This document shows, one piece after another, positions 30,354 through 54,119 of a stretch of 57,113 nucleotides of DNA (its first letter is position 1; every line of letters starts with the position of its first letter). The translations under genes were made by a program, and so were the position numbers. Source of the stretch: Minisyncoccia bacterium. Its GTDB lineage: Bacteria > Patescibacteriota > Minisyncoccia > Phycocordibacterales > Phycocordibacteraceae. The notes beneath the pieces were generated by a model. That model was not told the DNA's origin. It made no database searches and saw nothing but the letters and a program-made list of their open reading frames with translations. The stretch lies in assembly GCA_041485695.1 (NCBI GenBank), contig JBGPJZ010000003.1, positions 1 through 57,113 of the forward strand. Reading direction: 5' to 3'.

Positions 30354-33300
30354 CAACGATGAGATTAAAGGTGACCATACCTGTTGAAAGCTCGACCGAG
30401 TACTTCCCTCCCGGCACTCGCTCAGCATACGCTTTGTCTTTAGGCGAGAGGCCTTCGGCCTTTCTCGCCTCCGCAACCGCGCGCGCCATCTCACGCTCAT
30501 CGCCCTCTTTTATGAGCGCGGGTGTAAGGTGTGTATCAAGAGAATATGACGGCGCGTCCTGGCCCAAAGGGGCTAGCAGGACTTTTTTAACGTTTAACTC
30601 TTCTGCAAGGATCTGTGCTACATCATTCCACAGCGGAGGAGGCAGGAAAGAATGTTTAATTGTGAAAGATGCTAAAGGTTGTCGTACTTTTATTTCAGCT
30701 CGTTGCCGCGCTTGAAGTCCGAAAGAGGCGATTCCGCGCGCGAGTTGCATGGCCGCAAGAATATCTCGGTCTTTTTTGTTATCAAAAATGCTTAGCCACG
30801 AACGCTTCACAATTGGCCATGCTGCAAGATGCACGCTCTCCGGATCATCATGACTGCGGACTTTTCTGAAGACGTCCTCCGCGATAAATGGCGCAAAGGG
30901 AGCGATAAGGAGCGAGATCGTGCACAACGTTTCGCGGAGCGTTTCAGTCGCGGCCGCATCTCCCTCGCGCGCACGGTCGCGGATGCGCCGCACATACCAC
31001 TGCGAGAGGTCCTCGCAGAGCGCGGCAATCTCACGCGACGCGTCATACAAATGGTATTCATCAAACGCCTCGGTCACTCTCCGCGTCGCTTGTGCGACGC
31101 GCGTCTTCATCCATCTGTCGATTATTTGCTCCTTTCCTTCTTTCTTTTCTCCCGCGAACAATTCGTAAAACTTCGCGCTATTCTCGAGCCAAGAAATGAC
31201 ACGCGCAGACTCTTTGAGCGTTTTTTCATCATAGTTCTTAGAGTCTCCTGCCTGATTGACGTAGTACATCCAGAAGCGGAGCGTATCAGCGCCCCACTTC
31301 TCTATTTCCGCCCACGGCTCGACGACATTCCCCTTCGACTTGCTCATCTTCTTCCCTTCTGCATCGAGCAGGTGCCCGAGGCAAATCACGTTTTTATACG
31401 CACGACCGCGACCCATCAAAACCCCGACCGCGAGCAGGGTGTAGAACCATCCGCGCGTCTGATCAATCGCTTCTGAAATGAAGTCGGCGGGATACACGAC
31501 GTGTTTTGGCTCCTGCGCAAAGGGCATCGAGCCGGAATCGAACCATACGTCCATGACCTCGGGTACTCGCCGCATCTCCTTTCCCGAATCCGAAATCAAA
31601 ACAACGTCATCAATGTATGGCCGATGCAAATCGAGCTCGTAATCGTCATTGTGAGAAAGAGGTACGAAATCAAGCTCGCGCGACCGCCCCGTTGGCATAC
31701 TGAGTCCGGCGATGAGACGTTTCGATCCGTGCCTGTCTGCGCCTTGTGCTACGGCGCCCAATGTCTCGACACCGACGCCATGGGTAATGATGAGGATATG
31801 TTGACCCGCCTGGCGGCGTTCAATATCGTGCAAAAATGCTCCGAAGCGGTTCTTTGCGTCCTGATAGCTCTCGCCGCCTGGGACTTTATCGTCATACTGA
31901 TGCCCATCACGAAATGACTGGAAGTCGGCTATGGGCCGATGGTTAAAATCGCCGAACTCAAATTCGCGCAAGCGGTCATCGTAGGTGATGTTCTCTTTAG
32001 GAATAGCGAGTAGCTCCGCAACAATCTCGGCTGTCTCCCGTCCGCGAAGGAGCGGTGAAGCGTAGATGCGAGTTGTGCGAGAGAGCGCACGAGTTGCAGC
32101 TTTGACTTCAAGTTTCCCTTGCAGGGTCAATGGATTCCCGGCTCGATCATTGTTCGCCATACCCTTTACGTTGTGCTCGGCCTCGCCGTGGCGCATCACA
32201 AAATATTTGTTGTCTGATTTTTTGGTACGCTTTTTTAATTCAGCGACAGAACCTATAACCAGCCGCTCCTTTTTGTCGGCAGTCTCCCAGACCGGGAGCG
32301 GCGTCGCCCAATAGCGCTCGCGCGAGATCGCCCAATCCTTTACATTCGCGAGCCACTCCCCCATGCGTCCATCACGGATATGTTCCGGCTCCCAACGAAT
32401 CTTCTGATTTTCCGCAACAAGCTCGTCGCGCACCTCCGACATGCGGAAATACCACGAGTCGCGGGCATAGTAGATGAGTCGCGTCTTGCACCGCCAACAA
32501 AAGGGGTACGTGTGCGTGTATGACTCTTTTTTGAACAACAGGTCGCGTGCCTGCAAATCCTTCAATATTTCAACCGACGTCTCTTCTTCTACGACCGAAC
32601 GACCAGCAAGGAATCCGGTGCCTTCGATAAACTTCCCGTCCGGTGCAACTAAATGCACTTTCGGCAGTCCGATTTTCTGTCCAAGTTCAAAGTCGTCCTG
32701 CCCATACATCACGGCTGTATGAACGATACCCGTCCCCTCTTCGGTGGTTACGAAATCTGCAGCATACACCTGAAACGCCTTATCAAACTTTTGTTTCTCA
32801 GTTTCCGGCGCGAGATTTTTCGCAAAGTCGTAGAGTGGTTTGTACTTCTTGCCCACGAGATCAATGCCTTTGACGAGCCGTAGGGGTCGCGAAGAAATAG
32901 TCTGGCCGAGCGAAGCGAGGAGACCCGAGGACTTTTCTGCAGCGACTCCTGCGGCGAGGATGAAGCGCTCTCCGTTGACTTCGTGCACGCTATAGTCAAT
33001 ATCCTTCCCAACCGCGAGGGCAACGTTCCCCGGCAAGGTCCACGGCGTCGTCGTCCAAGCAAGGAGATACGTGCCGGGTTCGTCAACGAGTTCAAATTTC
33101 GCGGTGATCGTTAAATCTTTTACGTCCTCATATCCTTGCGCGAGTTCGTGCGAGGAGAGCGCAGTGCCGCACCGCGGGCACCAGGGCACCACTTTATAAT
33201 CCCTGTAGAGCCGGCCGTCGTCAGAGACTTTTTTGAAAATACCCCAGAGCGCCTCCATGTAGGAGGGGTCGGAGGTGAAGTAGGCCGAGGACTGGTCCAC

Positions 33301-33684
33301 CCAATAACCGATGCGCTTCGTGAATCGCCCCCATTCGTCGATGTAGCGGAGCACGCTCTCTCGGCATTTTTTATTAAATGCGGCGACGCCATACGCTTCA
33401 ATATCTTTCTTCCCTTTAAACCCAAGTTCCTTTTCTACTTCGAGCTCAACTGGCAAGCCATGCGTGTCCCAGCCGGCGCGGCGAGCTACGCGATACCCAC
33501 GCATCGTCTTGTAGCGCGGAATCGCGTCTTTGAATGCGCGCGCCTCAAGGTGATGAATACCTGGCTTGCCGTTCGCGGTCGGTGGGCCCTCGTAGAAAAC
33601 GAAATCGCCCTTCGGCGCCTTCTTTCGAAGCGACTTCTCAAAAATCTTCTCGCGCTTCCAAAAAGCTAGTATCTCATCCTCCAT
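30343..33684 (-). CDS. ileS: Isoleucine-tRNA ligase (type 2) with inserted histidine-phosphatase domain
   Basis: FYEGPPTANG..HH, GWDTHGLP, WTTTPWTLPGN, ISRERYW, WFDSGSMP, AIDQTRGWF, KMSKS. Start at 33684 or 33690. Confidence 0.97.
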   Translation of the reverse strand: MEDEILAFWKREKIFEKSLRKKAPKGDFVFYEGPPTANGKPGIHHLEARAFKDAIPRYKTMRGYRVARRAGWDTHGLPVELEVEKELGFKGKKDIEAYGVAAFNKKCRESVLRYIDEWGRFTKRIGYWVDQSSAYFTSDPSYMEALWGIFKKVSDDGRLYRDYKVVPWCPRCGTALSSHELAQGYEDVKDLTITAKFELVDEPGTYLLAWTTTPWTLPGNVALAVGKDIDYSVHEVNGERFILAAGVAAEKSSGLLASLGQTISSRPLRLVKGIDLVGKKYKPLYDFAKNLAPETEKQKFDKAFQVYAADFVTTEEGTGIVHTAVMYGQDDFELGQKIGLPKVHLVAPDGKFIEGTGFLAGRSVVEEETSVEILKDLQARDLLFKKESYTHTYPFCWRCKTRLIYYARDSWYFRMSEVRDELVAENQKIRWEPEHIRDGRMGEWLANVKDWAISRERYWATPLPVWETADKKERLVIGSVAELKKRTKKSDNKYFVMRHGEAEHNVKGMANNDRAGNPLTLQGKLEVKAATRALSRTTRIYASPLLRGRETAEIVAELLAIPKENITYDDRLREFEFGDFNHRPIADFQSFRDGHQYDDKVPGGESYQDAKNRFGAFLHDIERRQAGQHILIITHGVGVETLGAVAQGADRHGSKRLIAGLSMPTGRSRELDFVPLSHNDDYELDLHRPYIDDVVLISDSGKEMRRVPEVMDVWFDSGSMPFAQEPKHVVYPADFISEAIDQTRGWFYTLLAVGVLMGRGRAYKNVICLGHLLDAEGKKMSKSKGNVVEPWAEIEKWGADTLRFWMYYVNQAGDSKNYDEKTLKESARVISWLENSAKFYELFAGEKKEGKEQIIDRWMKTRVAQATRRVTEAFDEYHLYDASREIAALCEDLSQWYVRRIRDRAREGDAAATETLRETLCTISLLIAPFAPFIAEDVFRKVRSHDDPESVHLAAWPIVKRSWLSIFDNKKDRDILAAMQLARGIASFGLQARQRAEIKVRQPLASFTIKHSFLPPPLWNDVAQILAEELNVKKVLLAPLGQDAPSYSLDTHLTPALIKEGDEREMARAVAEARKAEGLSPKDKAYAERVPGGKYSVELSTGMVTFNLIVDAA
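32895..32942. repeat. Hairpin element family B, in-frame inside ileS
   Basis: 45/48 identical to the intergenic copy at 54061-54108. Confidence 0.85.
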
Positions 33685-33713
33685 AATCATTCAATCCTAG
33701 CGTTTTTAAGGGC

Positions 33714-33750
33714 AAAAAGAAAACGACCGCACACACCCCGTATGCGGTCG
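33714..33750 (-). terminator. Terminator upstream of the ileS promoter
   Basis: Stem cgaccgca/tgcggtcg followed by a U tract on the minus strand. Confidence 0.7.
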
Positions 33751-33990
33751 CCCCGTATGCTTATCTTCGTCGTTCGGCTCGTGAACGACATCCTCCATTG
33801 TCTCCCCTGCGAGGGAGGTTACGCCAAGGCGGTCTCGGACTCTTCCCCGTATGCCGGCGTTTCTTGCCCAACTTCGGAAACGTCTCCACTTCAGTAGAAA
33901 ACCCGATGTATTCGCTCGTGGTATTTCCGCTAAGTCCGTCTGACTGTTGATCCAAAAGAACCCCCTTGCGGTTAGAACCAGATTAGACTA

Positions 33991-35589
33991 TCACATCTTT
34001 TCGGGGGTGGGAATACCGAGTAGTTTGAGCCCGTTTTGCATGGTGTTCACGAATGCTCGCGCGAGCATGAGCTTGTGCGCCTCGTGCTCCCCGCCAATAA
34101 TCTTTTCTTTCGCATAAAAAGAATTCCATTCGGCCGCGAGTTCGGTGAGATAGGTGGTGAGGAGGTTCGGCGCGAGCTCGTGTGCGGCGCGCGCGACGAT
34201 TTCAGGGAAATGCAAGATGTCGCGCTCGATGAGATACGGTACTTCAGGAGGAGTCTCGATACGAGCCTGCTTGCTCGCCTTCTCAAGTACTGATTTCGCG
34301 CGCACCAAGGCGTACTGCAGATACGGCCCGGAATCGCCCTCAAGCGAGAGCGACTTCTCGGGGTCAAAGGTGATGTCGGAGCCCGACGCCTGCCGGAGAA
34401 TCATGTATTTGATTGCGCCGATTGCGACCTCTTCAGCGACGAGCGGGTCTTCGTTCTTCTCGCTCGCTTTCTTGATGACGTCGGTAATAAAATCACTCGC
34501 AGTGATGACATTCCCCTCGCGCGAAGACATCTTCCCGCTCGCAAGCCGCATAAATCCGTGCGCGACGTGCGCGGTCTTTTGAGCGAGCAGAGGCGCGACA
34601 TCGTGGAGCGCCGCAAGGACGGTCTTGAATCGCCCTGCCTGCTCATTACCGGTCACGATGATGACACGGTCGCTGGGCCAGCGCTCCTCGCGGAGGAATG
34701 CGAGCCCCAAATCCTTCGCCTCATAGGTCGGCGTGTCGTGCGAGGTGATGAACACCATCGTATGCACGCCCTTCGCTTCACCGTCATAGATGATGGCGCC
34801 GTCGCTCTTCTTGAAAATCCCCTTTGCGAGGCCGTCCTGCACGATGCGCATGCCGGCCTCGGTCGTATCGCTATCAAAAAGCTCGAAGTCATATTTTGTG
34901 CCGAGAAGGCTCCAGGTACGGCGGAATTCTTGCATCGAGACCTCACGACCGCGCTCCCATAAGCTCATGAGGGCGACATCTTTACCCGCGTATACCGCCT
35001 TGCTTAACGTATCAATCTCTCCTTTGGCGCTGGCGTCTTCTTCATATGCCTTTGCCCCTTTCGCGTATGCCTCGCCCAGCTCCTTGGCATCAAAATCAAT
35101 AACCGCGTCTTTCTGTAGAGCCCACAATGCTTTCGCGACATTGGGGCCCACGTCGCCACCGAATGTATCGCGTGCGACCGTCGCTCCTCTTGACTCGATG
35201 AGGCGCGAAAATGCCTCGCCAATGATAGTGCCCATCATGTGCCCGATATGCATCTCTTTAAACGCATTCGGGTTGCCGTACTCAATCATCACGCGGCCGC
35301 CAGTTGGCGGAGCCGCCATATCGTTCCCTCTCCCCCACTCCTCGCCTTTTGCATCTGCTTCGGCAACCGCAAAACTAACCGCCTCGCGCGAGAGCGTGAT
35401 GTTCACGAATCCTGGACCCGCAACTTCAACGTGCTCGGCGTCCGCGCCGAGCACGTCTTTGAGCGTCTTGGCGACTGCTTCGGCCTCCTTCCCCACAAAC
35501 ACAGCATAATCCCCGTGCGCCGGGTCAGGCGGCCGCCTAATCGCGCCCGCACTCTCCGAGCCTAGAGCTTTTCGTATCCTCTCTTCCAT
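33991..35589 (-). CDS. argS: Arginine-tRNA ligase
   Basis: GPGFVNI, EYGNPNAFKEMHIGH, KMSSREG, GDSGPYLQYALVR, C-terminal PEKM. Confidence 0.97.
   Translation of the reverse strand: MEERIRKALGSESAGAIRRPPDPAHGDYAVFVGKEAEAVAKTLKDVLGADAEHVEVAGPGFVNITLSREAVSFAVAEADAKGEEWGRGNDMAAPPTGGRVMIEYGNPNAFKEMHIGHMMGTIIGEAFSRLIESRGATVARDTFGGDVGPNVAKALWALQKDAVIDFDAKELGEAYAKGAKAYEEDASAKGEIDTLSKAVYAGKDVALMSLWERGREVSMQEFRRTWSLLGTKYDFELFDSDTTEAGMRIVQDGLAKGIFKKSDGAIIYDGEAKGVHTMVFITSHDTPTYEAKDLGLAFLREERWPSDRVIIVTGNEQAGRFKTVLAALHDVAPLLAQKTAHVAHGFMRLASGKMSSREGNVITASDFITDVIKKASEKNEDPLVAEEVAIGAIKYMILRQASGSDITFDPEKSLSLEGDSGPYLQYALVRAKSVLEKASKQARIETPPEVPYLIERDILHFPEIVARAAHELAPNLLTTYLTELAAEWNSFYAKEKIIGGEHEAHKLMLARAFVNTMQNGLKLLGIPTPEKM
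35297..35311. repeat. Palindromic element family A inside argS (encodes PPTGG)
   Basis: ccgccagttggcgga, 14/15 identical to the family core. Confidence 0.6.
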
Positions 35590-35606
35590 TAGAACGAGTG
35601 TAACAG

Positions 35607-35640
35607 AAAAGCCGCCCCGGATGCATCGGAGCGGCTTTTT
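35607..35640 (-). terminator. Terminator after the YjjX-like gene
   Basis: aaaagccgc / gcggctttt. Confidence 0.75.
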
Positions 35641-35657
35641 GTAGATTCACATCGATG

Positions 35658-36227
35658 CTAGTCGTTCGGATTGAACACACGATACTCATCAGGACTAATA
35701 AGTACAGTGAAAGCCGAAAGGACGGCCTGTGTGATGATCGACTCGCGATCGAGTATCCCTTTTGAAAGGTATTTGTGAGGATCTTTCTCTCCGCCGCCAG
35801 CGCATCTTTGGATGATGGTGCCGATTTCAGTCTTCTGTTCCTGAACTTCAGTCACCATCCACGTCGGAATCGGTAGACCAGCGCCGACCGAACGACCTTG
35901 AATCTGCCAACGCGGATACACAATGGCGACTGCCGGTGGATCAAACCAGCGACCATCGATTTGGACAAGACCGTTTTCGATACCGATGCCAATCTCCGCA
36001 TTATGGGCCTCGCGCGCTAATCGCGCGCGATTAAGCGCGCCTGTGAACATTTCATCGAAACCGAAAGGTTGCGCGGGTATACCAGATTCAGTTTCCTCGC
36101 TCCTAAGTTCATAGGGAGAAAGAGGCAAGTCACCCATCTTCGTTATGTCGTGCTCAATGAGCTTCTGAATCGCCTTCTCTACCGCACGAATCTTAAGGGC
36201 ACTTTTCGTGCCGACTACAATAATCAT
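35658..36227 (-). CDS. yjjX: Inosine/xanthosine triphosphatase (YjjX/DUF84 family)
   Basis: VVGTKSALKIRAV, SGIPAQP, GALNRA, GIGIENG. Confidence 0.85.
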   Translation of the reverse strand: MIIVVGTKSALKIRAVEKAIQKLIEHDITKMGDLPLSPYELRSEETESGIPAQPFGFDEMFTGALNRARLAREAHNAEIGIGIENGLVQIDGRWFDPPAVAIVYPRWQIQGRSVGAGLPIPTWMVTEVQEQKTEIGTIIQRCAGGGEKDPHKYLSKGILDRESIITQAVLSAFTVLISPDEYRVFNPND

Positions 36228-36376
36228 TGCAATCCCCGTAAAGAACTACCGGGGGTACTCTACGCTACGCGAAAGAAGACGCAAGTCACTACTTGAACGA
36301 CTCGGGGATGGGGTGCGCGAGGATCGTCATGGACGATATGTTTGATCTTTCGTTTCAAAACAATAGTTTGTCTCAC

Positions 36377-36396
36377 TGGTATGATATATCATACCA
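36377..36396. promoter_or_regulatory. 20-bp perfect palindrome TGGTATGATATATCATACCA (copy 2)
   Basis: Identical to the core of the palindrome at 36835. Starts 9 nt past the stop of the TrpR-like gene. Confidence 0.8.
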
Positions 36397-36405
36397 ACTA
36401 GCGAA

Positions 36406-36831
36406 CTATCCGGAGAGAGATGCGCTCAAGAACTTCCACCGGCCGCGGCCTGCGCGCGGCGGCATACCAAAGTGAATCACGCGGACCAGCTCATCCATGA
36501 ACGTTTCGCGTTTGAAGTGTTGCGTATGCTCGCGTGCGTAGCGCGTAATGTGGTCGTACTTCCCCGCCTTCACGTCCTTCCATACACGGATGACGGTTTG
36601 ACGAGTAACGCCAAGCGCATCCTGGATTTGAGTAAAGGAGTACTTACGCACCAAAAGGACGACTGTAGCGAGTCGTTTCGCGAGCATTACTCGCTCGGTT
36701 TGCGAGAGGAGTTCATTTGCAAGTATGCGCGCTTCTTTCTTACTCTGTGCGAGAGATAGAAATGTCAAAAACTGATCCGCGAGCTCCGTTGTCACCTCTT
36801 TCTTTATCCGTTTTTTCGAAACATGCGGCAT
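36406..36831 (-). CDS. TrpR-like (YerC/YecD) transcriptional regulator
   Basis: ELLSQTERVMLAKRL...YSFTQIQDALGVTRQTV. Confidence 0.85.
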   Translation of the reverse strand: MPHVSKKRIKKEVTTELADQFLTFLSLAQSKKEARILANELLSQTERVMLAKRLATVVLLVRKYSFTQIQDALGVTRQTVIRVWKDVKAGKYDHITRYAREHTQHFKRETFMDELVRVIHFGMPPRAGRGRWKFLSASLSG

Positions 36832-36834
36832 AGG

Positions 36835-36862
36835 TAAATGGTATGATATATCATACCATTTA
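36835..36862. promoter_or_regulatory. 28-bp perfect palindrome overlapping the extended -10 (TGgTATGAT) of the TrpR-like gene
   Basis: taaatggtatgatatatcataccattta, 3 nt from the start codon. Confidence 0.85.
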
Positions 36863-36888
36863 GTACCTGCTCAATTCTAACCTGCTTT

Positions 36889-38148
36889 TTACTCGAACGA
36901 TTCGGGGATGGGATGGACGAGAGCCATTGAGCGGATTTGTTTTCGGGCATTTGCGACGGTCTTTTTATCGCGCTTGGTGAGTACCTCGAGCATTATCTCG
37001 GCGACGCGGGCACAATCTTTCGCCTTGAAGCCGCGGGTTGTGAGTGCTGGGGTACCGAAGCGGATACCGGAGGGGTCCATCGGCTTACGCGTATCATCTG
37101 CGATTGCGTTCTTGTTGAGCGTGATGCCCGCTTCGTCTAAAAGCTTCTCCGCTTCACCACCCGAAATATTGAGCGAGGAAAATACATCGGCCAAGATAAG
37201 GTGATTATCCGTGCCGCCCGTCATGAGCCGCACCCCGCCCTTTTTAAAGACCTCCGCCATCGCCTTAGCATTTAGTACGACTTGTTTTGCATATTTTTTG
37301 AATGAAGGATCCAGTGCCTCACCAAACGCCACTGCCTTTGCCGCAATTTGGTGCATATGTGGCCCACCCTGGAAGCCCGGGAACACTGCCTTATCTACCT
37401 TTTTCGCGAGCTCTTCACTCTCTCGCACTAAGATGAGCCCGCCGCGCGGGCCACGCAAAGTCTTATGCGTCGTGGTCGTCATGAGGTCGAAACCGTAATC
37501 AAAAGGATTTTTTGCTGCGCCTCCGGCGATGAGCCCCGCGATATGCGCGACATCCGCCATCGAGTACGCCCCGACTTCTTTTGCGATACTCGCAATCTTC
37601 TTCCAATCTAATTCGCGTGGGTAGGCCGAGAAGCCGCCTAGGATGACCTTCGGCTTTTCTTTGAGCGCCGTCGCGCGAAGCGCGTCGTAGTCAATCTCGC
37701 CTGTCTCAACATTTTTCATCTTGTACCGGATGAAACGGAAGATTTTCGAGATGTAGGTCACCGGGTGGCCATGGGTCAGGTGCCCGCCGTGCGAGAGGTC
37801 CATGCCGAGGATGGTGTCGCCTGGCTCGCACATGGCGAAATAGGCCGCGATGTTGGCGTTTGCGCCGCCCAAAGGCTGCACGTTCGCAAACTTCGCGCCA
37901 AAAAGCTTTTTGGCGCGTTCAATCGCAAGCAGCTCTACCTTGTCGGTAAACTCTTGGCCGCCGTAGTAGCGTTTCCCCGGATACCCTTCAGAATATTTGT
38001 TCGTAAGCGAGGAGGCCATCGCCTCCTTCACCGCGCGCGAGACGTAATTCTCTGAAGGGATGAGCTCGAGCCCTTCTTTTTGCCGTTTCTCTTCGCCCAT
38101 CAAAAGGTCGTAGAGTTTCTTGTCTTCTTTTTTGATGTGCTCGTACAT
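36889..38148 (-). CDS. glyA: Serine hydroxymethyltransferase
   Basis: LIPSEN, EGYPGKRYYGG, TTTTHKTLRGPRGG, GIRFGTPALTTRG. Confidence 0.99.
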   Translation of the reverse strand: MYEHIKKEDKKLYDLLMGEEKRQKEGLELIPSENYVSRAVKEAMASSLTNKYSEGYPGKRYYGGQEFTDKVELLAIERAKKLFGAKFANVQPLGGANANIAAYFAMCEPGDTILGMDLSHGGHLTHGHPVTYISKIFRFIRYKMKNVETGEIDYDALRATALKEKPKVILGGFSAYPRELDWKKIASIAKEVGAYSMADVAHIAGLIAGGAAKNPFDYGFDLMTTTTHKTLRGPRGGLILVRESEELAKKVDKAVFPGFQGGPHMHQIAAKAVAFGEALDPSFKKYAKQVVLNAKAMAEVFKKGGVRLMTGGTDNHLILADVFSSLNISGGEAEKLLDEAGITLNKNAIADDTRKPMDPSGIRFGTPALTTRGFKAKDCARVAEIMLEVLTKRDKKTVANARKQIRSMALVHPIPESFE

Positions 38149-38154
38149 GCAAAT

Positions 38155-39706: not shown

Positions 39707-39715
39707 GGACGTTGA

Positions 39716-40279: not shown

Positions 40280-40297
40280 CCTGCTAGTATACCCAAG

Positions 40298-42664: not shown

Positions 42665-42668
42665 ACGC

Positions 42669-44573: not shown

Positions 44574-44659
44574 ATGTTCTGAATCGCGACGTGTCTACAC
44601 CCGCCACCATACGCATTCGCGAGAGACGCGAAGTACGGCTTAGTTATAACACAGAACGT

Positions 44660-45193: not shown

Positions 45194-45205
45194 AGACGCT
45201 ATCGG

Positions 45206-45610: not shown

Positions 45611-45648
45611 GATGAAAGGTTAGAAGATAACCCTTTCAGTATACCAAG

Positions 45649-45732
45649 TGCGCAGGAGAGGACTCGAACCTCCAATCCCTTGCGGGAGCTACCACCTCAA
45701 GGTAGTGCGTCTACCAATTTCGCCACCTGCGC
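45649..45732 (-). tRNA. tRNA-Leu(GAG)
   Basis: Long variable arm, ctacc-TT-GAG-GT-ggtag. Confidence 0.95.
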
Positions 45733-45757
45733 GTAAGCGCACTATAACAAACTTCGA

Positions 45758-46252: not shown

Positions 46253-46263
46253 GTTGCGAGACA

Positions 46264-46941
46264 TTACCACGACGCTTGCGCCCCCGCAAATTTCGCAAAG
46301 ATCGGCTTCAAGTCAGCAGGGACGGGTGCGGTGATTTCTTTCCGGCCACCCCCAGGTAGCGGGAGGTCGATCCGGTATGCGTGAAGGCCGAGACGGTTTA
46401 GGTTGAGAGAATCAGGATTATTAGGCGCGTACAGCGGGTCGCCGACGATGGGGTGATGTATCGCTTTAAGGTGCACGCGAATCTGGTGCGTACGGCCGGT
46501 CTCGGGCATGACTTTAAGGAGCGAGTGGGCGCCATCGTCGCCCAACACTTCGTACCGTGTCACCGCCGCGCGCAAGCGCCCGCGCGCCTTCGGCTGCGCG
46601 GAGCGCAAGCGAAAATCCCTGCGTGAGCGGCCGATATCAAAATCAATAATGCCCTTTTTCTCTTTCAACACTCCGTACACCAGCGCGAGGTACGTCTTCT
46701 TCACCTCGTGCTTTTGAAACGCATCTTTCAGAAAGGTCAGTGCGGCTTGATTCTTTGCAAAAACCAGGACGCCAGAAGTGTCGCGATCGAGCCGATGGGC
46801 ATACCCGCCTTCGTGATGTCTCTTTGAAAACCAATCTGCGGCCGTCTCTTCTTTTGTGCGGCCATCGGGGTGCGTCATGAGCCCCGCGGGCTTATCGGCC
46901 GCGAGGATATCAGCGTCTTCATAGAGTATGGGCAGCTCCAT
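46264..46941 (-). CDS. RluA-family pseudouridine synthase
   Basis: [29 protein letters not shown]. Confidence 0.95.
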
Positions 46942-46966
46942 CCTCTTACCCTAACATCTCTCTCGA

Positions 46967-48016
46967 TTAGCGCGATCCTGTGACAAAGTCCGGGACGAGT
47001 GCGCGGGCGATCTGCTCAAGTGTCGCTTTAGTGGCTACGGGGAGTTCCGCGCGTTTGAGTGCTTGTATGGCCTCCTCTTTATAGTACGCTGCGCGTTTTT
47101 CGAGCTCGCTTTGTGCATCGGTTTTGGCGAAAAGCGCGAGCACCTCGGTAACAGCATTCTCGCGGAGACTAACCCCATCGTAGAGGCTTTCGAGGCGCTT
47201 TTGATCCATAGGAGCGAGATGCTCGCGCGCAAATATCACGGGGAGTGTCTTTTTCCTCTCATAGATATCGCCCGCCGGTCTCTTGCCGGTCTTCTCGGAT
47301 GTACCCCAGATAGATTGCCAGTCATCGTAGAGTTGGTAGGCCATCCCAAGATTCTCGCCGAAATCCCCAAGCGCCGCAATCTCCTCTTCACGTTCCCCCG
47401 CAAGAATAGGAGCTGTTTCAGTTGCGGCGCGGATAAGTTTAGCGGTTTTGTGAGAGATCATCGTGAGATACGTTTCTTCATCCACTAAAGAGGCGTTAAG
47501 CTTCGCCGATGCAAGCGTAAAGTCGAGATACTGACCTTCAATCACTTCGAGATAGCGCTCGAGAAGCCGTTTCCGGACTGTATCTTGACGTTCTGAAGAT
47601 GCACCTGTCGGCCCGTCGAGCGCAGAGAGCGCAAGCAGGAGCTGGGCATCGCCGGTGTTAATGGCATGGTCAGTTCCCCATAATTTCCACACGGTCGGAC
47701 GGCCGCGCCGCAACTCATCGCGGTCGACGACGTCGTCATGGATAAGTGTAAAATTATGGAAAAGCTCGATAGAAAGCGCTGCCGGCAGAGCCTCATCAAG
47801 GATCCCGTAGCTTTCGGCGATAAGGAGGAGGAGGCCGGGTCGCACCCGCTTCCCTACGGGGTGAGCGACAGCAGTAAAGCGCTCATCAGCGTACCCCATG
47901 AAGTAGCGCATCATGCCGTACAGGGCGTAGTCGTTGCGTTGCAAAAATGCCTCGGCGCGCGCATCGATGCGCGCGCCGAATGTGCCGACAACTTCGAGAG
48001 GATCGCTTTCGGTCAT
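46967..48016 (-). CDS. Polyprenyl diphosphate synthase (FPP/GGPP type)
   Basis: GKRVRP, LIHDDVVD..LRRGRPT, GDAQL, GQYLD, QLYDD. ATGA-coupled to uppS. Confidence 0.93.
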   Translation of the reverse strand: MTESDPLEVVGTFGARIDARAEAFLQRNDYALYGMMRYFMGYADERFTAVAHPVGKRVRPGLLLLIAESYGILDEALPAALSIELFHNFTLIHDDVVDRDELRRGRPTVWKLWGTDHAINTGDAQLLLALSALDGPTGASSERQDTVRKRLLERYLEVIEGQYLDFTLASAKLNASLVDEETYLTMISHKTAKLIRAATETAPILAGEREEEIAALGDFGENLGMAYQLYDDWQSIWGTSEKTGKRPAGDIYERKKTLPVIFAREHLAPMDQKRLESLYDGVSLRENAVTEVLALFAKTDAQSELEKRAAYYKEEAIQALKRAELPVATKATLEQIARALVPDFVTGSR

Positions 48017-48717
48017 ACGCCGAAGTTGCGTTTGCGGTCTCGAAACTCGGCCAGATGCTGCTCGAACTCTTCCTTGGTAAAGGAAGGCCAGAGGGTATCG
48101 GTAAACACGAGCTCGCTGTAGATTGACTGCCACGTAAGAAATCCGGAGAGCCGCTGCTCGCCGCTTGTCCGAATGATGAGGTCAGGGTCGGGGAGCCCTT
48201 TGCTCCAGAGGGCATGTTGAATATCCTCTTCAGTCACGACCTCTCGGCCCTCTTCGATGAGCTGGTTTACGGCATGCACAATCTCAGCGCGACCGCCATA
48301 CGAAAATGCGATGACGAGCGTGCCGCGTTTGTTCCCAGACGTTTTTTCTTCGAGATTCTTCGCGAGCACTTGGACCTTCTCCGGCAGACGCGCGAGATCG
48401 CCGATAAAGCGTACGCAGATGTCCTCCTTCGCGAATTCCTCAAGCTCATCAGTAATCGCCTTTTCAAATAACGTGAGGAGGTACGAGACCTCTTCGGGAG
48501 CACGCTTCCAATTCTCGGTTGAGAATGCGTAGTAGTAGAGCGTGGTGACGCCAGCATCGAAAGCGGCTCGGGCGATCTCTTTCGCCTTTTCAAGGCCGGC
48601 GCGGTGCCCCTCAAGCGCAAGGAGGCCGTTCGCTTTCGCCCAGCGGCGATTGCCGTCCATAACGATGCCGACTGAAGCGGGGGCGCCTGTCGTGAGTGAT
48701 GTCGAATGATTACTCAT
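48013..48717 (-). CDS. uppS: Undecaprenyl diphosphate synthase
   Basis: IVMDGNRRWA, FSTENWKR, YGGRAEI, IRTSGEQRLSGFL. Confidence 0.96.
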   Translation of the reverse strand: MSNHSTSLTTGAPASVGIVMDGNRRWAKANGLLALEGHRAGLEKAKEIARAAFDAGVTTLYYYAFSTENWKRAPEEVSYLLTLFEKAITDELEEFAKEDICVRFIGDLARLPEKVQVLAKNLEEKTSGNKRGTLVIAFSYGGRAEIVHAVNQLIEEGREVVTEEDIQHALWSKGLPDPDLIIRTSGEQRLSGFLTWQSIYSELVFTDTLWPSFTKEEFEQHLAEFRDRKRNFGV

Positions 48718-48988
48718 AGGTGATGCTGAAGCTTTGATACTCTCCTGTCGCGGACCTGTATGCAAGAGCGACGCTGTCGACACGCGAAAAGAAGGAGCCG
48801 GCCTTTAAGCGCGCTGCAAAAGCGTCGAGTTTTTTACGAGGGCCTTCAGCAATGACACGGACGTCGCCCCCAGCAAGATTTTTCACTTCACCCACGAGTT
48901 CGAGGTCGCGTGCGCTGCGCACGGCGAAATCCCGATACATCACCAACTGTACGCGGCCACGCACGACCGCCTCCAGGCGCTCATTCAT
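48710..48988 (-). CDS. acyP: Acylphosphatase
   Basis: VRGRVQ.V.YR, GEVKNL..GDVRVIAEG. Confidence 0.88.
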   Translation of the reverse strand: MNERLEAVVRGRVQLVMYRDFAVRSARDLELVGEVKNLAGGDVRVIAEGPRKKLDAFAARLKAGSFFSRVDSVALAYRSATGEYQSFSITYE

Positions 48989-49027
48989 ATGTAAAGAAAA
49001 CTGCTCCGGTATGGCTTTGGTTTCAAG

Positions 49028-49100
49028 TGCACCCTGAGGGGCTCGAACCCCCGACCTTCGCAGTGTAAATGCGCTGCTCTACCAACTGAGCTAAGGGTGC
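49028..49100 (-). tRNA. tRNA-Val(TAC)
   Basis: TAGCTCAGTTGGTAGAGC, loop TT-TAC-AC. Confidence 0.95.
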
Positions 49101-49113
49101 TTGCGCTTGCTTG

Positions 49114-49195
49114 TGGGCACGGAGGGAGTCGAACCCTCAACCCTTGCGGGATACGCTTCTGAGACGTACGCGTATGCCAGTTCCGCCACGTGCCC
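49114..49195 (-). tRNA. tRNA-Leu(CAG)
   Basis: Long variable arm, loop CT-CAG-AA. Confidence 0.93.
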
Positions 49196-49196
49196 C

Positions 49197-49271
49197 TGGT
49201 GCCCCCACCAGGAATCGAACCTAGATCAAGAGCTTAGAAGTCTCCTGCACTATCCATTGTGCTATGGGGGC
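49197..49271 (-). tRNA. tRNA-Arg(TCT)
   Basis: Loop CT-TCT-AA, CCA encoded. Confidence 0.9.
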
Positions 49272-49378
49272 GATAGCACCTTCACCCTAGCGCACTACTA
49301 CCAAGTGAGAAAGTGGGGATTGAACCTCTGGGCTCACTCCCCCGAACGAGCATAGGGAGCAAGCTTTGGGTACAGAGC

Positions 49379-49669
49379 TTATTTTGATGGGTCAATGAAG
49401 CGGTAGGAGCCGTCCTCATACTTCGTGAACTCGCTCGAGCGATCAGTAAATATCTTCGAGAGCTTGTCGAGCTCCGACTGGTCAATTCCCGTTGTGGGCG
49501 GCGCCGGATGCGAGCCAAGCACTGCCCCGCCCGCGACCTGCCCGAAGAGCCAGAGATTCCACCCGACGCTCGCGACGAGGCACAGGAGCCCGATGACAAG
49601 GATGACGGCCCAGTCGCGGGCGGGTCTGAAGCGTTTCCCATAGGAGAGTTTGAAGTGTGGAATGTTCAT
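49379..49669 (-). CDS. Small membrane protein, last gene of the pilMNO-type operon
   Basis: One TM, coupled to the upstream gene. Confidence 0.7.
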   Translation of the reverse strand: MNIPHFKLSYGKRFRPARDWAVILVIGLLCLVASVGWNLWLFGQVAGGAVLGSHPAPPTTGIDQSELDKLSKIFTDRSSEFTKYEDGSYRFIDPSK

Positions 49670-50250
49670 AACGGTTGGACGCCGCTTGGCTTCGAGGCAC
49701 CTCCTTGTTTGTCAGCAGGAAGAATGCTCCCTGGCACGCTTACCGATGAAGACATCGAGCCTGCTGTAATCACGAGCGCCGCACTCCAGCCGGTTGCGGC
49801 TTGGGTCATCGTAATCGACGAAACGGTTATGGCGTAGGGCGCATTCTCTATGGCACCTATCGCGCGCATGACGGCATCGAATCCGCCGTCGATAGTAAGC
49901 GAGACTCCGAGCACTTGGTCGCCCTTTGCGCCCGGCGCCCCGATCGACACCACATTCACCTTCGCGCCGACAGCGGACCCGATTGTTTTAAACTCTTCCA
50001 GAAATGAGACGATATTATTCTCAGATATGAAGTAGCCCTGGACTTCGCCCTGTGAGCTTTGGAGCTTAGCGAGAGCGGCCTCGATGGAGCTCGCGCGGTT
50101 CGCCGTCTCGGTCTTCGTGTCAATCTCTTGCAAGAGACTCGCTGCGGTGGCGCTCTCGAGAGTTATCTTGTGGTACCACCAACCGTACCCTCCGAGAGCG
50201 AGCAGGAGCGTGAAGACCATAAGCACTACGTTGGTAAAGGACGAATTCAT
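49666..50250 (-). CDS. PilO-like type IV pilus alignment protein
   Basis: TM, coiled coil, then GGFDAVMRAIGAIENAPY. Operon position. Confidence 0.75.
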   Translation of the reverse strand: MNSSFTNVVLMVFTLLLALGGYGWWYHKITLESATAASLLQEIDTKTETANRASSIEAALAKLQSSQGEVQGYFISENNIVSFLEEFKTIGSAVGAKVNVVSIGAPGAKGDQVLGVSLTIDGGFDAVMRAIGAIENAPYAITVSSITMTQAATGWSAALVITAGSMSSSVSVPGSILPADKQGGASKPSGVQPL

Positions 50251-50807
50251 GGCAGTGTAAGCGTCAAGGTAATCGTGAATGGTATCTTCGTTTCTTTCGC
50301 ATAGGTTGAGACGGGCAAATCAGCCGCAGAAACAAAGGAGGCAGACTTGAGTGCGAGCTGGTACGCCTGTAAGTCGTCACGTGTTGCCGCAACGCCAGTG
50401 AGTATCGCCGAGGATGCCTTCTTAGTGCCGCTCGGGGCTGCGTACGAAAAGCCTGAAAGAGAGACGCGTGCATGCGGAACTTGTAAAATCTCGGTGAGCA
50501 CCTTGACGGTAGGTTGAATCGACCCAAGAGCTTCGATACGCGTCGCGCTCTTTGCGAGGTCAGCAAGCCGCGCCTCGAAGACCGCCTCGTCTGCCGACAC
50601 CCCAGAGGCTTTGAGGACGTCAAGCTGGCCTTGCCGCGCGCTTATTTGCGCTGAAAGCAACAGGTGAGTCGGCAAGAGCAAGATTGCGTGTACGAGAGCA
50701 AGAAAGGTAAGGAGTGCCGCCGCAAGCGCCAGCACGCGAAAGAAGTATCCTCGGCGAAAGGCGCGAATCCGATCCTCGGGCAAGAGATTGATTGATTCAG
50801 GGAGCAT
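50247..50807 (-). CDS. PilN-like protein
   Basis: INLLP start motif, TM, coiled coil, LTGVAATRDDL, PFTITL. Confidence 0.8.
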   Translation of the reverse strand: MLPESINLLPEDRIRAFRRGYFFRVLALAAALLTFLALVHAILLLPTHLLLSAQISARQGQLDVLKASGVSADEAVFEARLADLAKSATRIEALGSIQPTVKVLTEILQVPHARVSLSGFSYAAPSGTKKASSAILTGVAATRDDLQAYQLALKSASFVSAADLPVSTYAKETKIPFTITLTLTLP

Positions 50808-51882
50808 ATTCTCTAAGTGCGAGTCCGATTGCCGTCGAATACACCAGGGACTGTGTGTAGTCCAAGGGCGGCAGCCATTCGTCAGTCGGCGCGAAATTTG
50901 CAAAGACATTGCCGGTAGTGACCGGTATCCGGAGCGACCCCTCGAAATACTCGGCAAGACCGCGCACTGATGCATTCCCGCCGACGATTACCGCGCGGGT
51001 AACCGGCTCACGCCCGCCCGAAAGCGCTGCGTGCGCCTGCCAATACTCAAGGCGCCGCGCGATCTCATCGCGTATCGCTGAAGCGGTCGAGAGCATCGCA
51101 GCGAGATAATCTTCATTCCCCTCCCCCGGAACAATGCCGTGAGCAAGCTTCACGCGGCGAGCCTCCGTCTCGGTGACGCCAAAATGTTTCTGCACCGCGA
51201 GCGTGAGAGAGTGCCCACCGATCCCGATCGTAGTCGCGAATCGCGGGACACTAGAGGCCACTATGACGAGCTTCGTCGTCGTTTTGCCGATGTCGATGAT
51301 GAGGGTCGTCGTGGTATCCCCAAAAGGCAGTAGCGCGCGCGGAGCGGCAAACGTTTCGCTTTCAAGAGCCCGTACCATGAGCCCTGCCTCTTCACAGATG
51401 CTAGCCACGCCCTCAACAATCCGGCGCGCATAACCCACGCCGACGACGAACATGCCCTCGGCATCCTGTGACACAGGTACGATGTCGAAGGCCGTATCGG
51501 CGGGTGGCAGCGGCACGAATTCGTCGATATGCTGCTCGATAGCGGTCTTGAGCCCTTCCTTCGTAGTGCCCACAGCGTGCGTTTCAAAGAGATACGATTT
51601 CGACTCGGGCAGGCCGACATTCGCGATACGGATGCCCAGCTTTTTTCGCACTTCGCGGAGTGCAGCAATGATTGCTCCCCGGTCGGTGATGTCACCATCG
51701 GTAAACGCGGACCCAGAAAAACGGACATCGGTAAATGCCACAAGCTCAAGCCCGTGAGCGCGCGGCATGACCAAGGCGCCCTTCACTCCGCTCGTCGAGA
51801 GGTCGATGCCGATTGCCGGCATCGTGAGATAGTGCGGAGGTGCGAAGGCTGTGTGTGCAAAACGCAAAAGAGCCGAGGCCAT
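50797..51882 (-). CDS. pilM: Type IV pilus assembly protein PilM (actin-like)
   Basis: IGIDLS, LIIDIGKTTT, IGIGGHSLT, VGGNAS, AIGLALR. Confidence 0.92.
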   Translation of the reverse strand: MASALLRFAHTAFAPPHYLTMPAIGIDLSTSGVKGALVMPRAHGLELVAFTDVRFSGSAFTDGDITDRGAIIAALREVRKKLGIRIANVGLPESKSYLFETHAVGTTKEGLKTAIEQHIDEFVPLPPADTAFDIVPVSQDAEGMFVVGVGYARRIVEGVASICEEAGLMVRALESETFAAPRALLPFGDTTTTLIIDIGKTTTKLVIVASSVPRFATTIGIGGHSLTLAVQKHFGVTETEARRVKLAHGIVPGEGNEDYLAAMLSTASAIRDEIARRLEYWQAHAALSGGREPVTRAVIVGGNASVRGLAEYFEGSLRIPVTTGNVFANFAPTDEWLPPLDYTQSLVYSTAIGLALREYAP

Positions 51883-51901
51883 TACTCCAAGTATAAACGA
51901 T

Positions 51902-52228
51902 TTAGTGTGCGCTGGTGCCGGGAGGGACAGGGTTGCTGGGTGTAAGAAAAGCGAACGATTCGTCCTCGCCTACCGCAAAGAGCATGCCGTTCGATTCGAA
52001 TCCGCGTATCGTGCGCGGTTCGAGATTGGTAACAAAAGCGAGCTGGCGGCCGACAAGGATTCCTGGCTTCGGTATGTACACGGCGATACCGGAAATAATC
52101 TGGCGCGGCGCCTCCTCGCCGAAATCAACCGTGAGCCGCAGCAATTTATCGGTGTCGGGGATATGTTCGGCTGTTTTGACGGTGCCGACCTTCACTTCAA
52201 TCTTTTTAAAATCATCAAGTGCGATCAT
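51902..52228 (-). CDS. Stand-alone tRNA-binding OB domain (Trbp111/MetRS C-terminal/CsaA-like)
   Basis: DDFKKIEVKVGTV, DKLLRLTVDFG, RQIISGI, NLEPRTIRGFESNGML. Confidence 0.92.
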   Translation of the reverse strand: MIALDDFKKIEVKVGTVKTAEHIPDTDKLLRLTVDFGEEAPRQIISGIAVYIPKPGILVGRQLAFVTNLEPRTIRGFESNGMLFAVGEDESFAFLTPSNPVPPGTSAH

Positions 52229-52628
52229 GTTTTGAAAGGTAGCTCGTAAGAATGAGGGCCGCGGCAGAGGCATCGACATCTGCGCGCCGCGAGGGCGCGC
52301 GCGTTTTCTCAGAGGGGTTATGCTGACGCCGCGCCTCCGCGCTCGTGAGCGTCTCTGATTCATAGAAAACAGGCACGCCTGCACGCTCGTTGATGCTCTT
52401 GCCGAGCGAGCGCGCTTCGTGTGCGATGGGATTGTCATCTCCAGAAAAATCTTTGGACTCCCCCACCACCACGGCTTCTACTTTCTCTTTTACAATGAGA
52501 GCGCACATCTCTCCTGCGAGTTTAGGCGTATTCGGCACGATGCCGTATGGGAAGCCCATCCGCCCAGCCTCATCCGAAAGGGCGAGGCCGATTTTCCGGC
52601 TCCCGTAATCAATACCTAGATATCTCAT
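52215..52628 (-). CDS. yqgF: YqgF/RuvX family nuclease
   Basis: LGIDYGSRKIGLALSD, VVVG, ETLTSAEA, DASAAALIL. Confidence 0.92.
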   Translation of the reverse strand: MRYLGIDYGSRKIGLALSDEAGRMGFPYGIVPNTPKLAGEMCALIVKEKVEAVVVGESKDFSGDDNPIAHEARSLGKSINERAGVPVFYESETLTSAEARRQHNPSEKTRAPSRRADVDASAAALILTSYLSKHDRT

Positions 52629-52651
52629 ACTCCTATGGTATGCTAACCGGC

Positions 52652-52951
52652 ATGTATATGCACGACTGGAGTCCGTTTTATAGCCCGTATGCCGCAGGGC
52701 TGTGGGGCGTATTCGTCCCACTTTTAATCGTGGCGGCGCTGTGGACTGTCGTTCTTAAAGGGTACTCTTTATGGTATGCCGCACGCGACGGGCAAAAGTG
52801 GTGGTTCATCGCGCTCCTCGTCGTCAACACTCTGGGCATTTTGGAAATTATCTATCTTCTCTTCTTCCGCCCTTCGGCTCCTTACAAGCACGTCGTCGAA
52901 GATGTTAAAAAGAATGCTCCGCCAGTAGGGTCTTCATCACCTACGGCGTAA
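52652..52951 (+). CDS. DUF5652-like membrane protein
   Basis: WTVVLKGYSLWYAARDGQKWWF...NTLGILEIIY. Confidence 0.85.
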   Translation: MYMHDWSPFYSPYAAGLWGVFVPLLIVAALWTVVLKGYSLWYAARDGQKWWFIALLVVNTLGILEIIYLLFFRPSAPYKHVVEDVKKNAPPVGSSSPTA

Positions 52952-52957
52952 GAGCAG

Positions 52958-53042
52958 GGAGGGGTGGCAGAGCGGTCTATCGCGCTGGTCTTGAAAACCA
53001 GAGTGCCGCAAGGCACCGTGAGTTCGAATCTCACCCCCTCCG
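52958..53042 (+). tRNA. tRNA-Ser(TGA)
   Basis: Long variable arm, ctggt-CT-TGA-AA-accag. Confidence 0.95.
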
Positions 53043-53070
53043 CCCTTAGAGCCTGGTATACTTTATGCGT

Positions 53071-53541
53071 ATGCCTCAAGCGATTTTCGAGTGGCACGGG
53101 CAGGAGTACGAACATAACCTTAAAAGCGCCGATTGGTACTGGGCGGTCGGCATCATTGCGACCGCGCTTGTCATTGCTGCCGTGCTCTTCGGTTACTACC
53201 TGCTCGCAGCGCTCGTTGTTATCGCGACGGTAGCGCTCGCGCTCCATGCGGCTAGGCACCCGCCTCTGCACCGCTTCGCCATCGTTGACCAAGGCCTCAT
53301 GATTGATAACGACCTCCACCCCTACGAGCACATGCACTCTTTTGCCGTCTTCGAATATATCGAGGGTAACCGCCCTCCTGTACTTTCGATCAAAACTGCA
53401 AGCTGGTTTTCACCACACCTCGTCATCCCGCTTAATGAGGTTGACGCCGATGCTCTCTATGAACATCTCCTCGCACATGTCGATGAAGGAGAGCACCAGC
53501 ACTCGCTTACCGACTTGGTAGCGGCTTGGCTCGGGTTCTGA
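53071..53541 (+). CDS. Two-TM conserved hypothetical protein
   Basis: FEWHGQEYEH..KSADWYW, two TMs, C-terminal beta domain. Confidence 0.8.
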   Translation: MPQAIFEWHGQEYEHNLKSADWYWAVGIIATALVIAAVLFGYYLLAALVVIATVALALHAARHPPLHRFAIVDQGLMIDNDLHPYEHMHSFAVFEYIEGNRPPVLSIKTASWFSPHLVIPLNEVDADALYEHLLAHVDEGEHQHSLTDLVAAWLGF

Positions 53542-53557
53542 TAGATTGATTTTTACT

Positions 53558-53629
53558 GCTCCCGTCGTTCAATGGATAGGACATCAGCTTGCGGAGCTGA
53601 TAATGTCAGTTCGATTCTGGCCGGGAGCA
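53558..53629 (+). tRNA. tRNA-Arg(GCG)
   Basis: tcagc-TT-GCG-GA-gctga. Confidence 0.92.
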
Positions 53630-53646
53630 CTTGTAGAATACGTAGA

Positions 53647-53718
53647 CCTCTCGTCGTTCAATGGATAGGACGGCTCCCTCCGAAGGAGCTGATGCCAGTT
53701 CGATTCTGGCCGAGAGGA
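53647..53718 (+). tRNA. tRNA-Arg(CCG)
   Basis: gctcc-CT-CCG-AA-ggagc. Confidence 0.9.
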
Positions 53719-53722
53719 CTAG

Positions 53723-53989
53723 TTAAGCGTTTACGCGAGCAATCGCTTTTGCAAGGCGGGACTTTTTGCGCACAGCGGTGTTTTTGGAGATGACGTGAGT
53801 CTTTGCCGCCTTATCGATTGCTTTAAAAGCTGCCGGGAGGAGTTTTTGAGCATCACTCGCTTTCCCTGCCGCAACAGCATTGCGCACCTCTTTCACCGCA
53901 TCGTGGAGAGTGTTCTTACGACGCACGTTAAAGACGCGCCGACGGAGCGACTGGCGGTGCGCTTTCTTGGCCGATTTCGTGATTGCCAT
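53723..53989 (-). CDS. rpsT: 30S ribosomal protein S20
   Basis: MAITKSAKKAHRQS, IDKAAKTHVISKNTAVRKKSRL. Confidence 0.97.
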   Translation of the reverse strand: MAITKSAKKAHRQSLRRRVFNVRRKNTLHDAVKEVRNAVAAGKASDAQKLLPAAFKAIDKAAKTHVISKNTAVRKKSRLAKAIARVNA

Positions 53990-54043
53990 GTCGCCCCACC
54001 TTACGACAACAAACAATTTCCCGCAAGCGAGCACGTAAGCGAA

Positions 54044-54119
54044 GAAGAAAGGTGCCGAGAAAATAGTCTGGCCGAGCGAAGCGAGGAGGCCCGAGGACTT
54101 TTTCGCAGGCGCTTTCTTC
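54044..54119. repeat. Hairpin element family B, intergenic copy (core 54061-54108)
   Basis: Long imperfect hairpin (gaagaaag/ctttcttc, gtgcc/ggcgc, agtc/gact) with GAGCGAAGCGAG apex. Core 45/48 identical to the ileS copy. Confidence 0.85.

Follow-up and report, generated by a model that had tools for sequence, protein, structure and literature searches.

We analyzed a 57,113-nt contig (JBGPJZ010000003.1, positions 1 to 57,113, forward strand; the window, meaning this whole stretch) from the assembly GCA_041485695.1 of a Minisyncoccia bacterium, in which a first-pass annotation had noticed the same 48-bp hairpin sequence inside the isoleucyl-tRNA synthetase (IleRS) gene ileS and in the spacer between rpsT and ruvA. 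Our results assign the two sequences to a family of small, gene-less, hairpin-forming DNA elements of Paceibacteria/Parcubacteria that are, or once were, mobile. The element would be a nonautonomous hairpin that acts as single-stranded DNA (ssDNA), is tolerated in genes because it contains almost no stops, and has homing-like site fidelity in its spread or renewal. We give both the family assignment and this description a probability of roughly two in three. Insertions that keep the reading frame of the host gene are translated as 20 to 27 extra residues in surface loops.

Eight copies of one hairpin element in the genome

The host genome (G000 in our genome set; the window is its contig C3) is 620 kb, 55% GC, and 97% complete, and the relatives of its IleRS are Patescibacteria of the class Paceibacteria, in records labeled Kaiserbacteria, Nomurabacteria, or Paceibacterota. 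The ileS-internal segment at 32895-32942 (AAATAGTCTGGCCGAGCGAAGCGAGGAGACCCGAGGACTTTTCTGCAG) and the segment at 54061-54108 differ at 3 of 48 positions, which agrees with the 45/48 identity reported before. When the 36-nt core pattern of the element was searched with up to 3 mismatches, just those two places matched in the window, versus 0 matches in 100 shuffles. The features concerned are listed below by position, strand, and identity.

32877..32955, +, antisense to ileS: complete hairpin copy within ileS (covariance model match, 85 bits, E 3.6e-20)
32898..32933, +: conserved asymmetric core of the ileS copy, AGTCTGGCC, then the apical hairpin GAGCGAAGCGAG, then GAGACCCGAGGACT
54042..54122, +: intergenic copy in the divergent rpsT/ruvA spacer (covariance model match, 100.6 bits, E 1.9e-24)
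30343..33690, -: ileS, isoleucyl-tRNA synthetase, 1115 aa (PF00133, PF08264, PF00300)
53723..54034, -: rpsT, ribosomal protein S20, left neighbor of the intergenic copy (open reading frame [ORF]; PF01649 on identical JGI contigs)
54148..54690, +: ruvA, right neighbor of the intergenic copy (ORF; PF01330, PF14520)

The 48-bp stretch proposed as the element in ileS turned out to be only the shared center: the whole hairpin of about 79 nt (32877-32955) lies within the reading frame and has its own 13-bp outer stem (CCGTAGGGGTCGC / GCGACTCCTGCGG, including two G.T pairs), with a computed fold of -42.9 kcal/mol under RNA parameters. The ileS frame reads the element antisense as ...AAEKSSGLLASLGQTISS..., so that the hairpin copy encodes IleRS residues 246-272, AAGVAAEKSSGLLASLGQTISSRPLRL (IleRS peptide AAEKSSGLLASLGQTISSR). 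The intergenic copy, housed in the 113-nt spacer between the divergent rpsT and ruvA, does have the apex GAGCGAAGCGAG ascribed to it and folds into a hairpin of about 80 nt.

A genome-wide search, which had been suggested as a check, was run with blastn and with a covariance model built from the copies, and it found exactly eight copies instead of two. Four are intergenic (rpsT/ruvA, KH-protein/trmD, ung-like/M13 peptidase, and rplQ/rplM), and four lie in frame within intact ORFs, two in the sense and two in the antisense orientation: ileS, gatA (PF01425), a UvrD/PcrA helicase gene (PF00580), and an RlmI-like S-adenosylmethionine methyltransferase gene (PF10672).

The element is about 80 nt long, with the unit ranging from about 81 to 93 nt. 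Its outermost part is an outer stem of 10 to 17 bp followed by a small internal loop; inside this lies a helix of an A-run and a T-run (GAGAAAAY / TTTTTCGCAG; the A/T helix, P2), then an invariant asymmetric core (AGTCTGG CC ... GG AGAN CC GAG GACT), and innermost a variable apical hairpin. The core comprises the helix AGTCU/GGACU with an invariant U.G (T.G) pair, GG/CC and CC/GG pairs with fixed 3'-side bulges (GA and AGAN) between them, and a tandem G.A loop. The outer stems are specific to each copy yet paired, and the core is invariant. Rfam 15 gave no match at the gathering threshold on either strand of the window and no match at E up to 10 for the intergenic copy.

Repeat DNA has become protein sequence

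Two types of IleRS, A and B, occur in the genus (see below), and the one in the window is of type A. Among close type-A orthologs, 78 of 80 lack the peptide and have a shorter loop, whose length varies among the 80, in line with the earlier description of this loop as normally variable; all 80 of the other type-B IleRS relatives lack it as well. The comparison with sister taxa thus revealed nearly all sites to be empty, although a few sisters carry the insert at the same site. The gatA insert is a net gain of 23 aa that falls in a linker with conserved blocks on either side, and none of the 29 orthologs examined (55 to 81% identity) has it. Empty orthologs of both IleRS and GatA show that the repeat came first and the protein sequence followed, the direction known from Rickettsia palindromic elements (RPEs), and on these sequence comparisons the proposal that noncoding repeat DNA was recruited into an essential enzyme holds: what was repeat DNA is now protein sequence. 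Since the outer stem of the gatA copy equals the consensus of the four intergenic copies of this genome, what was inserted is the whole hairpin, and the gatA insertion is recent.

The opposite direction, in which IleRS would have had the peptide ancestrally and the intergenic sequence would derive from the gene as a copied fragment, would go with only two copies and a peptide common to sister ileS genes. It draws some support from the intergenic copy, whose apex GAGCGAAGCGAG matches the ileS copy and not the other intergenic copies, and from the peptide being common to some sister ileS genes. Yet the peptide is missing from the 78 type-A and 80 type-B relatives just described, beyond the two window copies there are six in the same genome and over 100 outside it, across many genomes and in unrelated genes and spacers, and the stems and P2 of the intergenic copy are those of the intergenic subfamily, so that the apex alone can have been exchanged. 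We consider copying out of ileS extremely improbable.

The IleRS loop that holds the insert is a variable one within the CP1 editing domain. An AlphaFold2 model of residues 1-530 (33 aligned sequences) had predicted local distance difference test (pLDDT) values above 90 in the editing domain and of 56 to 61 at residues 251-270; this low-confidence segment lies between two strands, suggesting that the insert is a surface excursion.

Three other ideas were set aside. That an inverted target duplication gave rise to the copy-specific stems was ruled out where the gatA copy is concerned: this young insertion has the stems of the intergenic consensus. An origin of the apex from host codons (PDG in GatA, xLG in IleRS) was ruled out by the same apices at unrelated loci, and similarities that might have been decayed remnants in the ileS genes of L019 and L055 were too weak to claim.

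One core, many reading frames

The host frame was kept and open in every coding copy. Five of the six reading frames of the consensus element are open, the sole stop being a TAG in AAAATAGTC, so in-gene insertions of frame-keeping length survive. Where the host gene reads the TAG frame, the T was replaced by A, G, or C in 8/8 scored copies, and in a second copy set no copy read in that frame retains TAG; a T occupies the position in about 45% of the remaining copies. All three sense phases (0, 1, and 2) and all three antisense phases (0, 1, and 2) are used to read the core. The resulting peptides differ, among them the unrelated KSSGLLASLGQT, QSGRPEGGDPRT, KVWPS..PEDF, SLAEAEGRGDPRT, and KVLGSP.... 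By orientation, 36 coding copies are antisense and 17 are sense.

Conservation at the nucleotide level

In the ileS inserts of four species (G000, G001, G002, and G030), the third codon positions of the core were identical at 15/15 in every pair, versus a third-position identity of 37 to 44% in the flanking 120 codons. Across 36 aligned copies, 94% of the cells were paired, and double changes occurred in 20 of 28 pairs, including 12/12 outer-stem pairs; none of 500 shuffles reached the observed covariation. The stems of orthologous ileS copies remain paired even where the protein changes on both sides. These patterns suggest that conservation acts on the nucleotides and not on the peptide, or else that spread has been recent.

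The better fold lies on one strand

The asymmetric core defines a "+" strand, and 105 nonredundant copies were folded individually. The "+" strand was more stable than its complement in 99 of the 105. The outer helix had 143 G.U pairs on "+" versus 60 on "-" (sense copies, 28:14; antisense, 68:29; intergenic, 47:17), and the outer helix in the model alignment had 28 G.T versus 5 A.C. With DNA parameters, the "+" strand gave -19.9 kcal/mol (z -2.4) for the ileS copy and -17.5 (z -2.0) for the intergenic copy, the respective values for the "-" strand being -14.2 kcal/mol (z -0.8) and -13.4 (z -0.9). The better strand is independent of host transcription, and most intragenic mRNAs get the poorer hairpin, which argues for an ssDNA form and not an mRNA structure. 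We infer that the fold under selection is that of ssDNA, serving as an intermediate or as a ligand. For the orientation of the element relative to replication, the GC skew was too weak for strand calls.

A structured RNA that acts within transcripts or is excised from them, whether a ribozyme, a mini-intron, or a regulatory motif, would share the strong covariation, the conserved unpaired nucleotides, and the G.U excess on one strand. However, neither strand has an Rfam match, the better-folding strand is the same in the 36 antisense and 17 sense coding copies, leaving most mRNAs with the poorer hairpin, and the purging of in-frame TAG where it is read, together with the kept host frame, fits translation and not excision. 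Action at the RNA level is therefore very unlikely in our view.

Distribution and recurrent occupation of the same sites

Among 80 relatives, carriers comprised 13/49 same-genus genomes and 2/32 genomes of other families, with 1 to 4 copies each; the copy number was highest in the present genome (8). We also searched a one-genome-per-species collection (185,579 species genomes) with the exact core pattern AGTCTGGCC-N6-36-GAGANCCGAGGACT, which has 22 fixed bases. It returned more than 115 matching stretches, all in Patescibacteria (Adler-, Kaiser-, Nomura-, Ryan-, Zambryski-, and Vogelbacteria, and others). Most copies sit within long ORFs, mainly of housekeeping genes and in both orientations. 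The recurrent hosts are UvrB, PolA, ParB, UvrA, Tgt, a HolB-like protein, and PrmC, and also an RlmI-like methyltransferase, a TraG/VirD4-like ATPase, MnmA, and IleRS. The uvrA gene of G069 (L105 / L212) holds two copies 1.36 kb apart, in the same orientation and with near-identical apices.

The same IleRS loop is filled in six genomes (G000, G001, G002, G030, G023, and G039). A tree of the IleRS region, built with the loop masked, puts the carriers at no fewer than four distinct positions, interspersed with empty genes. Among type-B genes, G030 and G023 are carriers and 0/80 others are, including the closest relative of the G030 gene (75% identity), so the element was gained within this genus at the homologous loop. 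Element subtype alpha occupies ileS in G000, G001, G002, and G030 and subtype beta in G023 and G039, and the gene is of type A in G000, G001, G002, and G039 and of type B in G030 and G023; the two memberships are crossed, with all four combinations existing. The alpha ileS copies have a private compensatory variant of P2, CGAAGAAAT / TTTTCTGCAG, which none of the remaining copies in these genomes shares; one element lineage is therefore present in both gene types.

Other hosts behave similarly. At one UvrD site, the element is sense in the present genome and antisense in G021; at one site of the RlmI-like methyltransferase, it is antisense here and sense in six relatives; and in PrmC, five genomes are filled at one site in two different frames. 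The subtype, orientation, or frame of the element does not track the host gene. The intergenic copy of the window is itself chimeric: its stems and P2 belong to the intergenic subfamily, and its apex is that of the ileS copy. This explains the 45/48 identity of the two window copies and argues for conversion between copies.

The two IleRS types are very different for a single GTDB genus (G030 and G023 versus G000), with type A carrying a phosphatase insert and type B being widespread in other classes of the Candidate Phyla Radiation (CPR). Their occurrence within one genus suggests xenologous replacement of ileS.

How the element might spread, and what else it might be

If the element is a nonautonomous ssDNA hairpin as proposed, the whole hairpin would insert without detectable target duplication, as seen in the young copies, and its "+" strand would fold, regardless of host transcription, as an ssDNA intermediate or ligand. 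The copies would persist and be kept uniform through some mix of recent spread, conversion of copies by one another, and transfer between filled and empty sites that are homologous; this persistence step is suggested because the histories of element and gene are discordant. The mobilizing enzyme would not be encoded as an HUH/Y1 transposase in this genome.

Several observations weigh against a mobile or once mobile element. We detected no transposase partner: the search for an associated HUH transposase, another check suggested at the outset, yielded 0 Y1_Tnp (PF01797) matches in the 97%-complete genome. Carrier G049 gave 0 PF01797 matches too, many noncarriers have such genes, and there was no correlation with carriers. 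No recurrent transposase-like neighbor was found at 80 loci, where the recurrent neighbors were all housekeeping genes, and the flanks of five young copies, read directly, had no target-site duplication and no target motif. Copy numbers are low (1 to 8 per genome). We found no empty/filled polymorphism in the population: its other contigs, retrieved by exact-protein look-ups from JGI samples 3300052992 and 3300053058, are 99.97 to 100% identical and all filled, and the clusters of the GatA, IleRS, and methyltransferase proteins are singletons. Moreover, the constancy of the core and the kept pairing in old coding copies exceed what is expected of a decaying selfish element and suit a host-selected function at least as well.

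Such a function could be that of a "+"-strand ssDNA binding or cleavage site for a cellular protein, or of a bidirectional terminator-like module, with translation as the price paid in a gene-dense genome. By analogy with the Ssn nucleases, a candidate binder is the product of the single GIY-YIG match of the genome, a 79-aa stand-alone gene at C1:120354-120590 (+), and an ssDNA nuclease dedicated to binding hairpin repeats has a precedent (PMC11893778). The invariance of the core across deep lineages, the third positions (15/15 versus about 40% in the flanks), the compensatory stem changes kept even at the expense of the protein, the strand-specific folding whatever the gene direction, and the architecture of A-run, hairpin, and T-run seen in the sequence would all be consistent with a host signal. 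Close GIY-YIG orthologs were also somewhat more common in carriers (7/11) than in noncarriers of the genus (9/38), a weak association that ignores kinship. However, the element is patchy, being present in 13/49 congeners at differing loci and copy numbers, and a needed signal is not expected to shift position between sister species. As for the nuclease, carriers G021 and G025 have no GIY-YIG homolog at E 1e-6, many noncarriers have one (again with kinship ignored), the element is unlike the NTS/SRM motif of the Ssn nucleases, and no hairpin copy adjoins the GIY-YIG gene. With a weak association and no adjacency, we rejected the GIY-YIG gene as the partner, and a host-selected signal, although the main rival reading, seems unlikely to us overall.

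GIY-YIG homologs occur in 63/81 relatives, often in multiple copies, and the gene in the present genome, within C1:120339-120593 (+), is flanked on both sides by a repeated GAGGTCAGCAGACCGAGGTACGAAC-like motif. Many Paceibacteria relatives (G007-G086) have 1 to 10 ORFs of 220 to 280 aa with partial Y1_Tnp (PF01797) matches.

A more specific version of the mobile hairpin is a minimal "homing hairpin", a gene-less ssDNA hairpin of about 80 nt that would be copied from filled into homologous empty sites of other alleles or species and would also be swapped or inverted among the copies already in place. By this route it would colonize and hold fixed loops of essential genes (IleRS, UvrD, PolA, UvrA/B, ParB, and methyltransferases) across a class of Patescibacteria, and it would depend on a structure-specific enzyme, for which a small GIY-YIG nuclease or the machinery of competence/recombination might serve. 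Such homing would account for a private sublineage being present in ileS of types A and B, for identical sites being filled in opposite orientations, and for the nucleotide constancy. We put it forward as a tentative and rather doubtful scheme.

Comparison with known hairpin repeats and homing elements

RPEs (Ogata et al. 2000/2002) are described as being about 100 to 150 nt long, with one conserved peptide per family (PMC10969869). The likeness to them drawn in the first-pass annotation holds, as far as that description goes, for palindromic repeat DNA translated in the housekeeping genes of a reduced genome. Each is a palindromic repeat that has no gene of its own and lies between genes as well as in frame in unrelated housekeeping genes, each adds a peptide compatible with the protein fold, and neither has a known mobilizing enzyme. 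The long hairpin-forming palindrome and the in-frame insertions in unrelated genes with empty orthologous sites, which characterize RPEs in this description, are both found here. The likeness does not extend further. Compared by description only, the present element belongs to another phylum and is shorter (81 to 93 nt versus about 100 to 150), and its one core is read in several frames and orientations, whereas each RPE family is described as encoding one peptide; by that definition, it is not an RPE. Also outside the RPE description available to us are the invariance of its asymmetric core, the covariation of stems that differ by copy, folding that favors one strand, and the repeated filling of the same sites.

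The arms are inverted repeats as in a classical MITE (miniature inverted-repeat transposable element), but they vary between copies, and the flanks are without the direct repeat of a target duplication. Repetitive extragenic palindromic (REP) sequences and REPINs, with their REP-associated tyrosine transposase (RAYT; Y1 HUH), share hairpin repeats, a single-stranded substrate, compensatory stem change, and the lack of target duplication (PMC3733652). REPs are extragenic by definition, however, with tens to hundreds of copies (PMC3733652), while the present element has 1 to 8 copies and is mostly intragenic. A RAYT gene is absent from the genome, and the GTAG/CGTC tag is not general, with GTAG found 21 to 40 nt upstream of the core in 16/105 copies (~15%). 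IS200/IS605-derived hairpin MITEs, the palindrome-associated transposable elements (PATEs), are similarly nonautonomous and hairpin rich, with strand-specific ssDNA biology and without classical terminal inverted repeats and target duplications; unlike the present element, they carry a pair of dissimilar subterminal hairpins and target a fixed tetra- or pentanucleotide, where we see a single hairpin, no target motif, and no TnpA.

Ssn GIY-YIG ssDNA nucleases recognize short hairpin repeats (NTS/SRM) and modulate natural transformation (PMC11893778). Those repeats resemble the present element in being short hairpins with oriented, nonpalindromic conserved positions, and a small stand-alone GIY-YIG gene is present here too; their consensus, CGTCATTCCCGCGMAVGCGGGAATCYRG, is unrelated to the element, and NTS occur in hundreds of copies around genes and not in frame within them (PMC11893778). 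The GIY-YIG association here is weak. With homing elements (inteins and group I introns), the element shares the recurrent occupation of the same site of an essential gene, patchy lineages, transfer between divergent alleles, and host genes rich in replication and repair enzymes. It differs from them in having no endonuclease or splicing, in staying in the product, and in occupying variable loops and not conserved motifs. In the library searched, no paper describing such elements in Patescibacteria/Parcubacteria was found.

These elements extend the Rickettsia paradigm, in which selfish palindromic DNA becomes protein sequence, to the CPR, whose genomes here are about 0.6 Mb, nearly all coding, and presumably under strong streamlining. 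A repeat that is conserved as DNA while being translated in several frames offers an unusually clean separation of selection at the nucleic acid level from that at the protein level. Folding on one strand, repeated occupation of the same sites, and the lack of a known transposase together point to an unrecognized system of ssDNA mobility or recognition. On the practical side, alignments of the marker proteins used for CPR phylogeny and annotation (IleRS, GatA, UvrD, and PolA) become longer and distorted through such inserts.

Other features of the window

The IleRS of the window contains a complete inserted histidine-phosphatase domain at residues 497-658 (PF00300, with the RHG motif), an unusual fusion of an aminoacyl-tRNA synthetase and a phosphatase. 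Close type-A relatives are similarly long (~1100 aa), and the phosphatase insertion thus appears to be common to them. The edge of the contig holds part of a 23S rRNA gene (window 1-2043, - strand), and eight tRNA genes are clustered at 44.5-53.7 kb of the window.

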